Virus record (IMG/VR): IMGVR_UViG_3300037067_026422
Strand: one strand, 5' to 3'
Source of the DNA: a virus
Taxonomy: Duplodnaviria; Caudoviricetes
DNA length: 64,000 bases
Of the stretch, positions 3,084 to 17,700 are shown in pieces; position 1 is the stretch's first letter, and each line of letters starts with the position of its first letter. The notes under the pieces were generated by a model that saw only the letters and a program-made list of their open reading frames with translations, searched no databases and had not been told where the DNA came from. Position numbers and translations under genes: made by a program.

Positions 3084-3398
3084 TTATTTTCCTATTTTCA
3101 ATCGCCACATCACGAATACCTTTAAATCCTTGTCATTTATGTATAGAGGTACCATACTTAATTCTATCTCAAACATAAACTTAAAAGCTTTTATGGCAAA
3201 GGCGCTAGAATAAGCAACCGATAACCAATTATTCAAAAAAGAAACAATGCTGTCCTCCTGTATCTCCTGCTCCTCCGATAACCTACTTTTTATTACAAGC
3301 ATAACCTTATGATAATAACTATAGCTTCTATTTTGATCCCACTCATTAAGTACCTCATGAAGCTTAATCAGGTCACCTATTACATAGCGTATACCCAT
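3084..3398 (-). CDS. Hypothetical protein
   Basis: 104-aa ORF ending PLYIND...WRLKIGK. Upstream TTGCAA-N16-TATATT lies 7 nt before the ATG (possibly leaderless). Confidence 0.7.
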   Translation of the reverse strand: MGIRYVIGDLIKLHEVLNEWDQNRSYSYYHKVMLVIKSRLSEEQEIQEDSIVSFLNNWLSVAYSSAFAIKAFKFMFEIELSMVPLYINDKDLKVFVMWRLKIGK

Positions 3399-3437
3399 TG
3401 TAACAAATATACTTTTTTAAAATTAATTTGCAAGCAT

Positions 3438-3479
3438 AAAAAAACCCTGGTAGAACTTTTTAGCTCTACCAGGGTTTTT
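3438..3479 (-). terminator. Rho-independent terminator
   Basis: Minus strand AAAAACCCTGGTAGAGCT-AAAA-AGTTCTACCAGGGTTTTTTT. A G-U pair forms only on the minus strand, and a U-tract follows the stem. Confidence 0.9.
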
Positions 3480-3511
3480 ACCTTATCCTAAATCTCATAG
3501 AGCATCACATA

Positions 3512-3539
3512 GGGACATCCTCACTCGCGTAGAGAAAGC
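3512..3539 (-). CRISPR. Solitary degenerate type I-E-like repeat followed by a 32-nt spacer-like segment (3480-3511)
   Basis: GCTTTCTCTACGCGAGTGAGGATGTCCC is 22/28 identical to the repeat at 16069-16096, with the same GCGA loop. Confidence 0.6.
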
Positions 3540-3635
3540 CATCACAAAGTCCTGTCCTACTAAACTTTGGTATTTCTTGCTCTTTATCAAGTATTAAGTG
3601 GTATAGTCTCATGTATCTTAATTCACACTTTTATT

Positions 3636-3662
3636 GTTTCAATCCACGCTTTTTATAGCGAC
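3636..3662 (-). CRISPR. Shortened type I-C-like repeat
   Basis: GTCGCTATAAAAAGCGTGGATTGAAAC: GTCGC start, CGCT/AGCG stem, canonical GCGTGGATTGAAAC 3' end. Confidence 0.75.
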
Positions 3663-3708
3663 AAACTCAAGATAAAAATTGAAACAACAAGTTACATAAG
3701 TCGTGTCT

Positions 3709-3781
3709 GCTAATTTGAAGGAGTTGAACCTTCGACCGAAAGATTAACAATCTTTTGCTCTACCAACTGAGCTAATGTAAG
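3709..3781 (-). ncRNA. tRNA-Asn(GTT)-like RNA with defective acceptor stem (tRNA mimic / Y-RNA-like candidate)
   Basis: D arm TAGCTCAGTTGGTAGAGCA, anticodon arm AAAGA-TTGTTAA-TCTTT and T arm GAAGG-TTCAACT-CCTTC are intact. Acceptor CTTACAT/AAATTAG pairs only 4/7 and there is no CCA. Enclosed by a long outer stem 3678-3696/3795-3814. Confidence 0.8.
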
Positions 3782-3806
3782 CCTTCACAGTAATTGTAAC
3801 TTGTTT

Positions 3807-3840
3807 GTTCCAATCTACGCACCGCTTCTTTCAGTGCGAC
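3807..3840 (-). CRISPR. Type I-C-like repeat
   Basis: GTCGCACTGAAAGAAGCGGTGCGTAGATTGGAAC: 7-bp stem CGCACTG/CGGTGCG, matching the I-C pattern GTCGCAC...GTGCGTGGATTGAAA(C/T). Confidence 0.75.
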
Positions 3841-3846
3841 CCTATA

Positions 3847-3875
3847 ATAATACTATATTCTTTTTTAAAAAACAA
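3847..3875 (-). promoter_or_regulatory. Sigma70-type promoter for the ncRNA unit
   Basis: TTGTTT-N17-TATTAT; predicted +1 falls at about 3840, the first G of the repeat. Confidence 0.6.
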
Positions 3876-3930
3876 ATACTTTTTTAAAATGAAATTCGTG
3901 GGATATTTTATATAGATCGTGTAGAATAAT

Positions 3931-4287
3931 TTATTTTTCTACTTTCATACCAGGAAACTTACCTTTAACCGCCCGATATACTGCATTTTTTAATTCCTCC
4001 AAGGATCCCTTCCACCAGTCCGGTGCAGCAGAATACTGATTTACACGTGCAAGGGCATTCTGTCCATGGGCCTTGTCAGGAATAGGAAAATGATCATTTT
4101 TATCTTTCACCTTAGGATGCTCAGCAGGAAATATAGCAGCAGGACGATCCTTACCCGCAGGAAGCACTTTAGCCATCTTCTCAATAGTATTGGCTATAAT
4201 ATCCAATTCTTCCGCCTCTTTAAGCAGGCCATTACTTTCCACATCATTAGCTACATTATCAAGACTGGCTACAATATTTTTAAACAT
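3931..4287 (-). CDS. Hypothetical protein (DUF6582-like C-terminal motif)
   Basis: HFPIPDKAHGQNALARVNQ motif; helical N-terminus IVASLDNVANDVE...EAEELDIIAN. Confidence 0.75.
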   Translation of the reverse strand: MFKNIVASLDNVANDVESNGLLKEAEELDIIANTIEKMAKVLPAGKDRPAAIFPAEHPKVKDKNDHFPIPDKAHGQNALARVNQYSAAPDWWKGSLEELKNAVYRAVKGKFPGMKVEK

Positions 4288-14765: not shown

Positions 14766-17700
14766 TTATATTCGGTACATGATGCAGAGTATTAAAAATG
14801 CGTCTATTGATATATTGTCTGTTGATTTGTAAAAAATCTCTCCATCCCTACTCAGTATGCATAACTTTTGCTTGGGCCCTATAAACAGGTTGTCACCCCC
14901 AGTTCTAATTATCTCTAAAATATGTCGTAATTGACGAGCTGATACCGGATCAATGTCCATAGGATAATTGAAATAGCCTTCAGCATCAATTCTATCCATT
15001 ATCTTTGCATCCTTAAACAGCGTATCAGCTATATTACTTGCTGTTTTATTCAGTACTGCATGAGCATCACTTTTAATATCCACCCCATCGACAAGCATAC
15101 TCTTAACAGTAATATCTTTATAATAGTTATCCGCACTACTTAAGGTAGTACTGACAGGTTCTACTATCGCAGGATCAGAAGTTGCAGGATCAGAAGATGT
15201 TTCAACGACTGGTTCAGTTTTATGAGCTACTTCAAAATTACCAGTACCTTCTTTTTTTATCTTTTCCTTATATTCTTCCCAATAGTTATGGTCAACATCA
15301 AAAGTATCACCATACTCAGCATCCACATCAAAAGGAACTTCCCACTTGAGCTTGTCCGTAAGATCTCTCAGTTTCATAATCCGACATAGCTCCGGTATTA
15401 CAAAATCAAGCTTATCTTCTTTTACCTCAAAAAGAATTTCATCATGTATCGGGAGAAGAATCTTGATATCCTCCTGAAGATTGTTTTCACAGATCCATTT
15501 ATAAACTCTCCATAAAGCAATCTTTATTACATCAGCCCCCGTATTTTTACTGATGATACCTGCTGAATCAAACCTGTGTAGATCAGAATGAACGGATAAT
15601 GTAAAGGTATCTTCAGTTTTATCTATAATAGTTTTCTTTTTTAATTTATAGTGATAGTATATCTCGGATGGAAGCTCACACCCATATTTCTTCATCATCA
15701 AGAGCATACCCGGCAAGGTTACTTTTTTACCCGTATTAAGCTTACAAAAGTATGCACAATCATTAACATTCTTTCTGTCATATACTGAATAGAGTTTATT
15801 TTGAAATTCCTTTCTCAAAAATTCCGGTAGGATCATCTTGTTAATAGTACTTCTTCTTTTCCACTCTGTAGAAGGTAATCCCAACACCTCCTCTACTTTT
15901 TTAAGATCTTGCCATTCAAGTTTATAGGTATCTTCAGAAACCTTCCTTACAATAGAAGGCAGCCCAATTGACCAGCCTATAAGTTGTGTATCTCTTAACA
16001 ATGCTACAGAAACACCTCCACTCGCGTAGGGAAAACTTATACTTATGTGATGATCGAGAATGAGCTCGGAAACACCCCCACTCGCGTAGGGAAAACTATT
16101 ACAATCATCTGTATCAAAGTATCCCTTTATAAAAGCTGTCCTCATACTAATAGGAGATCTAAAAATCATTTCCGGTATACGCTTAGGTCTTGAGTCAGCA
16201 GGTTGATAACCTAATTCTATAAATAGATCAACCAAACCTTTTGAATTTATCTCCGGAAGATATTTTTTTAATCTTTCATCTTCCAGATTTAATTTCAGGG
16301 ACAATCTGGGGTTAGTTCTTATATCATCTCCTACTACATACCCCATCAAATAGGCTATAAAATCCCATTGCTCTTTAGAGTCTATGACAAAACTTTTTCC
16401 ATTATGAACTGATGCCTTATATTCATATCTTGGTGGATAGCTTCCAAATTCTTTAGCCAAAGGAATAGACACGCATATATCGGTATTTTCATCAAGGTCC
16501 TTAAAATGCCGAAATTCATACCCTTTTTCACCTACAACCAAAACTTCGTGTCGTGTATCACACCTTAAAAGCATACCATTAGATAGTTCTATTGTTGCTA
16601 ATTGACACTTCCCCCTATTAAGAACATCAAAGCTAGCCCATGTGGTACCCGTCCATATTTTTAGATGCTCTCCTTTATCCTTAAACTCCTTAATAGTTCC
16701 TATTGATATATAACCATACTTATCCGTTAAGCACCGCTCTTCCTTAACAAGGCAACCCTGTACGGCTGAATTTATTGCGCATCTATCTCCCTTCGCCTGT
16801 ATCCCTTTATCAGGAGAATTGTAGAATTCCCCAAGAGAACGTCGTCGACCAAACGCAGTCTTACTATACCCACGCTTCTTGGCAGCTTTCCATTCACGCT
16901 GGATCCAGCTACTCAAACCCTTATATTCCTTAAAGAAATTAATAATCATCTTTTTGGCTGTCTCATAGGGTATCTTTGCTTGTGCAGCAAATCCTCCTGC
17001 TCCTCCCCCATATAAAGTTAGGAAATTCAAGGTCTTACCGATCCCGCGTTCTCTCTTGGTAATCTCACTTTTACCCGTGATAATCTTACCTGTGATAGTA
17101 TGCAGATCGCCTGTACCGTGAAGAAACTCATGCAACCATTTAGGCTCTTTAGAAACATTGGCAGCTACCCTCAATTCTTCTCCACTATAGTCTATGGACA
17201 ACATCTTATATCCAGGGTGCGCTATCATTGCTTTACGGAGGTTAATAGAGTGCGGGTCTTCTTTATTATAGGTAGGGACATTCTGACAGTTGACACCACA
17301 GTAACCATCTATTTTCACACCATAACCACCCGAACCGCTAAAACGACCCGTATCCGCCTGAACCTGATTTAGTTTGAATTTAACCTCATCATTTTCATCA
17401 GCATTGATTAACCAGTTGTGCAAATAGGTGCTTTGAACTTTGACATAACCACGATAGGTCAAAACCATATTCATTAGGGGATTTTTAGTCTCCACCATCT
17501 CAAGCACTTCACCATTAGTCTGATACCCCCCAGCTTTTGTCCTTTCAGCTTTTTTAGGATATGGTAATTTAAGCTCATCAAATAAGATCACCCCAAGCTG
17601 CTGTGCAGAGTTTATATCAAATTCATGCCCTACGATGGTATATATCTCTTTTAACAGCTTCTGCATCCTACGCTCTACTTCAATATTCACTTCCTCAAGA

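Follow-up and report, generated by a model that had tools for sequence, protein, structure and literature searches.

A solitary, decayed type I-E-like CRISPR repeat in the last module of a phage small-RNA operon: possible recombination scar or decoy candidate

Single CRISPR repeats in phages have been catalogued as SRUs by Camara-Wilpert et al. (2023; PMC10651486), whose pipeline requires a match of at least 41.1 bits and at least 90% coverage to a database of 17,823 repeats. A match counts as solitary when no full or partial repeat of more than 70% identity lies within 100 bp (PMC10651486). SRUs and the related Racrs are intergenic and often lie directly downstream of a promoter, and type I-E Racrs are known (PMC10651486). 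A Racr is also expected to occur with a host CRISPR-Cas system of the same subtype, to be bound and processed by the Cas6-type nuclease and to inhibit interference. In the published mechanism, that of RacrIF1, inhibition comes from the RNA upstream of the Cas6 cut, and the handle-bearing downstream product is inactive. Cracrs, described by Liu et al. (bioRxiv 10.1101/2024.10.29.618823), carry flanking repeat-like sequences, with I-E examples among them. Their short pseudo-spacer has at least nine PAM-proximal matches to a cas or toxin promoter (10.1101/2024.10.29.618823).

The locus considered here lies in a stretch of 64,000 nt, which was analysed as a whole and is called the window below. 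It comes from an uncultured phage of ~239 kb; the G+C content of the window is 38%, and nearly all of its genes are on the minus strand. A sequence-only reading had described a lone type I-E-like repeat, a stretch of 32 nt and a terminator at positions 3438–3539, and had taken them for a mimic of a crRNA. The three elements are indeed present there, on the minus strand (Table 1). Overall, the unit is best read as a recombination scar or, at most, as an unremarkable candidate for a decoy.

Table 1. Features of the operon, of the counterpart modules in related phages and of the intein comparator (window positions unless a locus is named).
Feature	Position	Strand	Remarks
Operon promoter, two hexamers 17 nt apart	3847–3875	-	conserved in relatives; putative function
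First I-C-like hairpin-plus-tail unit, transcript start	3807–3840	-	
tRNA-Asn(GTT)-like unit, poor acceptor stem	3708–3782	-	flanks conserved in relatives
Short type I-C-like repeat unit	3636–3662	-	same transcription unit as lone repeat (probable)
35-codon ORF containing the lone repeat	3505–3612	-	positional counterpart of the relatives' 30–36-codon ORF
Solitary degenerate type I-E-like CRISPR repeat, 28 nt	3512–3539	-	22/28; next-best site in the window, either strand, 17/28
'32-mer': last sense codon and TGA stop (3507–3505), 8-nt motif (3504–3497), 17-nt linker	3480–3511	-	
Intrinsic terminator, 18-bp stem (3479–3440), loop of 4, T run to ~3434	3434–3479	-	conserved in relatives
Small ORF module, window	3434–3612	-	
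Small ORF module, L002	7087–7246		
Small ORF module, L007	3728–3900		
Small ORF module, L010	3603–3773		
Small ORF module, L012	3653–3824		
Small ORF module, L083	3834–4001		
Small ORF module, L084	3590–3766		
Small ORF module, L085	3976–4151		
Repeat-spacer-repeat inside the PolA intein (family A DNA polymerase)	16009–16096	-	comparator

The lone repeat was compared with the two repeats of a mini-array that the same phage carries inside an intein. It is identical to the first of these (16096–16069) at 22 of 28 positions, as the sequence-only reading had counted, and to the second (16036–16009) at 21. From base composition, ~1.6e-4 sites of at least 22/28 would be expected in the window. The significance test that had been proposed for this match gave a clear outcome: none of 300 windows simulated with a first-order Markov model reached 22, the maximum being 21. 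Because the match is far beyond chance and the comparator is a real CRISPR repeat, the lone repeat very probably descends from a type I-E repeat and would be a decayed copy of one. Repeats of this type have 28–29 nt, a stem of 6–7 bp, a tetraloop and a conserved 3′ tail that becomes the 5′ handle. The lone repeat has the length, the GCGA loop and the 11-nt core of real type I-E repeats, and the core is shared exactly with the mini-array repeat. If Cas6e cuts it at all, the cut is predicted between 3519 and 3518. Rfam gave no match for the repeat even at E ≤10. No second 28-mer within 10 mismatches was found near it. Positions 3536–3517 are, all the same, identical at 15 of 20 bases to positions 3504–3485, 32 nt downstream, a level reached by 2 of 1000 shuffles.

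The comparator itself is well anchored. Its first repeat is letter for letter the repeat of type I-E arrays on metagenome contigs of 41% G+C, where the arrays adjoin cas1-cas2 and a full cse1-cse2-cas6e-cas7-cas5 operon. Spacers measure 33 nt in these real host arrays versus 32 nt in the phage mini-array. Repeat plus spacer in the mini-array come to 60 nt, so that the intein reading frame is kept (compare L005 and L078–L082, with 33-nt spacers). A scan of genomes found a related repeat forming one array, in a Verrucomicrobia genome. A metagenome scan with the repeat pattern returned one real array and one chance match beside a tRNA, and the pattern was absent from IMG/VR. A search for relatives of the intein gave one homologue only, at 26% identity. 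After the second motif, at the corresponding place, a distant LAGLIDADG homologue has Ser-Phe.

The lone repeat is visibly worn. It differs from the host repeat at six positions, all of them transitions. Three of the six changes fall in the stem, where two keep pairing and one gives a C-A mismatch. The earlier count of six stem pairs out of seven therefore stands for the canonical register, provided that two G-U pairs are included; ViennaRNA, however, prefers a slipped register with a bulged U. The predicted hairpin energy is -5.8 kcal/mol, compared with -10.2 kcal/mol for the real repeat and -13.6 kcal/mol for the Verrucomicrobia repeat, and the hairpin is no better than those of shuffled sequences (z = -0.49). 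It forms in a fold of 116 nt. In a fold of 202 nt it is absent from both the minimum free energy and the centroid structures, and its 5′ strand pairs with upstream sequence instead. The 7 nt that would form a 5′ handle agree at four of seven positions with the matching host repeat (the L005 type) and at six of seven with the L004 type. BLAST of the lone repeat against the three real repeats recovered here gave 24–30 bits, a perfect match scoring 52–56 bits, so that in this comparison with three repeats it falls below the published SRU cut-off. All six changes avoid the central 11 nt (hypergeometric p ~0.03), a sparing that could reflect selection on the loop and upper stem.

The repeat lies in a gap of 532 nt between genes 4287–3931 and 3398–3084, a slot whose content varies although the gene order around it is conserved. 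A flanking protein of 118 aa is 58–67% identical in nine related phages. In all nine, the slot opens with the same promoter block and closes with the same terminator, and tRNA-like units with conserved flanks lie between the two together with other small RNAs. A Logan contig has the same gene order, including an identical 532-nt gap between the flanking genes. Closer phage relatives did not emerge: megablast of 20 kb against the phage collection returned none, with the local region matching tRNAs only, and no relative above 77% protein identity was found, so that the insertion of the lone repeat is not datable.

An I-E-like repeat unit is present in none of the nine related operons (0/9). The sequence-only reading had itself named a lack of conservation in related phages among the points on which its proposal would fall, and the result goes against it. 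One hairpin in L007 (from 3281) was considered as such a unit and set aside at 17/28, the noise level. The conserved promoter lies ~330 nt upstream of the lone repeat. No promoter was found directly upstream of the repeat, and the nearer sigma-70-like match is within shuffle expectation. Since the slot has one conserved promoter and only one terminator occurs within 3300–4000, the lone repeat is probably on the same transcript as the I-C-like units. The proposal that one transcript addresses two CRISPR subtypes thus survives in part: a shared transcript is probable and the idea is reasonable for the I-C part, but the I-E part is unique to this phage.

The other members of the operon are better represented among the relatives. 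Counterparts of the unit at the transcript start occur in L010, L011, L017, L083, L084 and L085, though their stem sequences differ. Near-identical versions of the short I-C-like unit occur twice in L017 (~3112–3136 and 3293–3317) and once in L083 (~3307–3335), and this unit matches Rfam CRISPR-DR families only at E = 4–5. Common to the I-C-like units are a 5′ GTCGC, a small loop and a 3′ tail that closes with ATTGAAAC or something very similar. Possible roles are those of a Cas5d decoy, of a processing site or of a processing signal specific to the phage. The tRNA-Asn-like unit of the window has only four of seven acceptor pairs. In the window, in L002 (6481–7009), in L007 (2980–3673), in L010 (3034–3550) and in L012 (2994–3593), each tRNA-like unit lies between conserved 5′ and 3′ flanks that are shared by all of these units and are able to pair. 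The slot of L007 further contains a tRNA with the anticodon TCA (3165–3239), a possible UGA suppressor. L011 is a natural deletion variant of L010 that has lost a tRNA-like unit and the greater part of the small ORF.

Two genes downstream of the operon, a gene on the minus strand (2717–1122) encodes a protein of 531 aa. Its AlphaFold2 model has a mean pLDDT of 83. Foldseek returned full-length matches to Ro60 of frog, human, Deinococcus and a Thermus phage (E 1e-8 to 1e-10, TM 0.49–0.62), and 1yvp, 2nvo and 9l5y are among the matches. Pfam gave weak vWA matches and the Atlas gave TROVE look-alikes. On the evidence of the model, the predicted protein has a Ro60 fold, composed of a TROVE ring and a vWA domain; it is up to 77% identical in many large phages. 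Given this Ro60-fold gene nearby, the tRNA-like units of the operon are probably Y RNAs of the YrlA type.

Two further observations concern the window more broadly. A short A-rich motif ending in GTATATTA lies a few bases 5′ of many gene starts (in the window at ~3406–3425, minus strand; also in L001, L010 and L018) and may be a phage-specific promoter. At 536–975, the window has dense periodic repeats of 12 and 18 nt, with 17 overlapping copies rich in CTGCTACAG-type units, which probably encode a repetitive protein segment.

The nature of the 32 nt is best approached from the terminator module in which they lie. The terminator of the window was recovered by an nhmmer profile built from the relatives (E = 9e-9). 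Across the related loci its stem shows 16 pairs, most of them with compensatory changes. Just 5′ of it, a reading frame is open in 8/8 relatives, with 30–36 codons and the same start, and this frame ends within a few bases of an 8-nt motif that is complementary to the 5′ arm of the terminator. L001 and L017 have two copies of the motif. Over ten loci, 96.6% of cells in the motif–arm alignment pair, and three pairs have changed on both sides in a compensatory manner. In a slid control, with the partner shifted by 1–3 columns, pairing falls to 32–49%. Relatives without any CRISPR-like repeat carry the same motif–terminator module. The small ORF and the arm-pairing motif together resemble a translation-coupled anti-terminator, for which they are a candidate.

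How far the window shares this module depends on the part considered. Its motif is identical to those of L012 and L085 and aligns with invariant columns, and, read in frame after the TGA, it gives the Cys-Ser codons that end the ORFs of the relatives. The window's own 7-bp pairing of motif and arm, taken alone, is not significant, since 23% of shuffles reach it. The first ~15 codons of the window ORF resemble those of L002. A peptide HMM and an nhmmer profile from the relatives recovered the terminator only and not the small ORF of the window, whose homology to the ORFs of the relatives is, as far as the alignments go, positional and motif-level only. The lone repeat sits inside this ORF and supplies nine of its codons. 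The small ORFs of the relatives lack a codon-position signature, and no long hairpin conserved across the ORF region was found by RNAalifold; as coding sequences, these ORFs are putative. Recoding of TGA was considered in view of the in-frame Cys-Ser codons and the TCA tRNA of L007, and was rejected: the standard code gives 96% ORF coverage, so that the TGA is taken as a stop.

The 32 nt that follow the lone repeat consist of a stop codon, the arm-complementary motif and a linker, and as such would be native sequence of the terminator module and not a guide. This view is held jointly with the origin proposed for the repeat below, and with the same tentativeness, somewhat short of an even chance. 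The length of exactly 32 nt, to which weight had been given, does equal that of the mini-array spacer, provided that the run of A's is assigned to the terminator stem.

The sequence-only reading had proposed that Cas6e cleavage would release a handle, a 32-nt guide and a 3′ hairpin, as in a Racr or a regulatory crRNA. As an RNA of the Cracr or CreR type, the product, a 7-nt handle plus the 32-nt guide, would load Cascade and target a rival phage or a cas promoter of the host. Viral crRNA-like regulators of I-E systems are known, the spacing equals the spacer length of the phage's own mini-array, and the 32 nt resemble what relatives carry at the same spot, although their identity to the known relatives is far too low for targeting. 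The search for a target, which had been suggested for cas promoters and mobile elements, found none. Against phages and plasmids in two public collections the best match of the 32-mer had E ≥3, the window has no second site for it, and against the 18.7 kb of host I-E loci (L078 and L079) it performed no better than shuffles and had no seed match. The Cas6e homologue of L079 is encoded at 3246–3905 of that locus. No second repeat or repeat-like hairpin lies 3′ of the 32-mer, so that no Cas6e hairpin would form its 3′ end; the 3′ hairpin is the operon terminator. The hairpin of the lone repeat is weak, the would-be handle agrees poorly with the matching host repeat, and host arrays use spacers that are one nucleotide longer than the 32 nt seen here. 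A guide RNA of this kind is thus improbable, and the architecture on which the proposal was built is poorly supported. The appeal to Racrs fails on a separate ground: the active Racr RNA lies upstream of the Cas6 cut, whereas the product envisaged was the handle with the RNA downstream of it.

The account that is tentatively preferred, at rather less than even odds, is that a decayed I-E repeat has been captured into the last module of the phage small-RNA operon. Illegitimate recombination with an I-E array, either that of a host or the phage's own, would have brought the repeat in, and drift would have followed. Such an event would make use of microhomology, as the motif at the ORF end and the 5′ stem of the repeat agree at 6/8 bases. 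Recombination between phages and arrays through spacer–protospacer homology has reportedly been seen in staphylococci. The 5′ third of the unit agrees at 9/11 positions with the native motif context of the relatives (L085), versus 8/10 with the repeat; what is specific to I-E resides in the loop and the 3′ part, where 14/18 positions match, an exact 8-mer among them. At three of its six departures from the repeat, the unit has the base of the downstream copy at 3504–3485, which hints at a chimera. A 7-mer shared by the end of the host leader and the sequence upstream of the unit was discarded as too weak. In its present state, the captured repeat would contribute nine codons to the small ORF and take part in a longer hairpin; it would give no loadable crRNA, and any CRISPR-directed activity would amount at most to weak binding of Cas6e. 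Several observations sit badly with a relic. The central 11 nt are untouched, and pairing survives two of the three stem changes. The phage also invests in CRISPR-like RNAs, as seen in the mini-array with its exact host repeat and in the conserved I-C-like units of the operon, and a decoy would be well placed in a highly expressed operon. The account further leans on a window ORF whose homology is positional only and on a motif–arm pairing that is not significant in the window alone, and no relative is close enough to date the insertion.

Several of these objections favour a Racr-like decoy, which is somewhat less likely than a relic, yet clearly ahead of the guide. Host Cas6e would bind the hairpin and perhaps cut it, and the abundant upstream transcript would tie up Cas6e and Cas7, as has been shown for RacrIF1, and thereby lower I-E immunity. 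The true descent from an I-E repeat, the identical loop and core with all six changes outside the core, the hairpin in the shorter fold and the conserved promoter of the transcription unit are all compatible with such a role. Type I-E Racrs have been validated experimentally, one Racr is on a bicistronic RNA with a small protein gene, and I-E systems with a sister repeat exist at the matching G+C of 41%. The repeat nonetheless scores below the SRU cut-off; its hairpin is about half as stable as that of the real repeat, adopts a slipped register and is lost in the longer fold; it has no promoter directly upstream and lies within an ORF; and it is confined to one phage lineage. None of 19 host spacers matches the window, so that they link no host to the phage. 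Improbable, in turn, is a chance resemblance to CRISPR in which the hairpin belongs to the attenuator, either structurally or as a further copy of the anti-terminator. On the 5′ strand of the hairpin, six bases (3533–3528) are perfectly complementary to six in the 5′ arm of the terminator, and two motif copies in L001 and L017, the 15/20 copy downstream in the window and the native character of the 5′ third would all fit. The loop and 3′ part, however, match the I-E repeat in register with a probability of ~4e-6 at one fixed position, and the total of 22/28 was never reached in the simulations. The most novel proposal, which is given very little credence, is that capture of the repeat has put the terminator module under the influence of Cas6e. 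Whether the 5′ strand of the hairpin is available as an anti-terminator would depend on the nuclease binding or cutting the hairpin, and read-through into the genes downstream, with the Ro60-like gene among them, would in this way respond to an active type I-E system. A simpler alternative, given equally little weight, is a one-guide weapon against siblings with an intact small ORF.

An active unit would be a further type I-E RNA decoy, useful as an instance yet not new in principle, and its carrier is a huge phage with a mini-array concealed in an intein. The lesson of the capture account, if right, is negative and more useful: insertion of a repeat into a native terminator module is enough to produce a succession of repeat, 32 nt and hairpin, so that spacing alone should not be taken to mean a guide. 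The surroundings merit a closer look than the unit does; they comprise a conserved operon of tRNA-like RNAs by a Ro60-fold gene, the I-C-like units and the arm-pairing small ORF.

Set beside the described systems, the locus is like an SRU or Racr in having a single repeat-like sequence in a phage, with no cas genes near it, that is transcribed with other non-coding RNAs. It differs in its score of 24–30 bits, its weakened stem, its place inside a small ORF and its distance of ~330 nt from the promoter, and is a candidate only. The 75%-identical partial copy 32 nt away could, moreover, disqualify it under the published pipeline. With Cracrs and the host CreR and CreA RNAs it shares a repeat-like sequence followed by a spacer-sized stretch, here in a phage; unlike a Cracr, it has one repeat and a terminator, and it matches none of the host cas loci that were available.

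Phage mini-arrays are said to be aimed at sibling phages, as Medvedeva et al. reportedly described in 2019. Next to these and to lone-repeat guides against siblings, the repeat here is a worn one, and its 32 nt resemble the known relatives only slightly. The trp and his leaders are attenuators that combine a leader peptide with an anti-terminator. Unlike them, the module of the phage has no regulatory codons that could be found, and it sits at the end of an RNA operon and not before a biosynthetic operon. Like them, it has a small ORF that ends a few bases from a sequence pairing with the 5′ arm of the terminator, and this pairing is compensated in ten loci.
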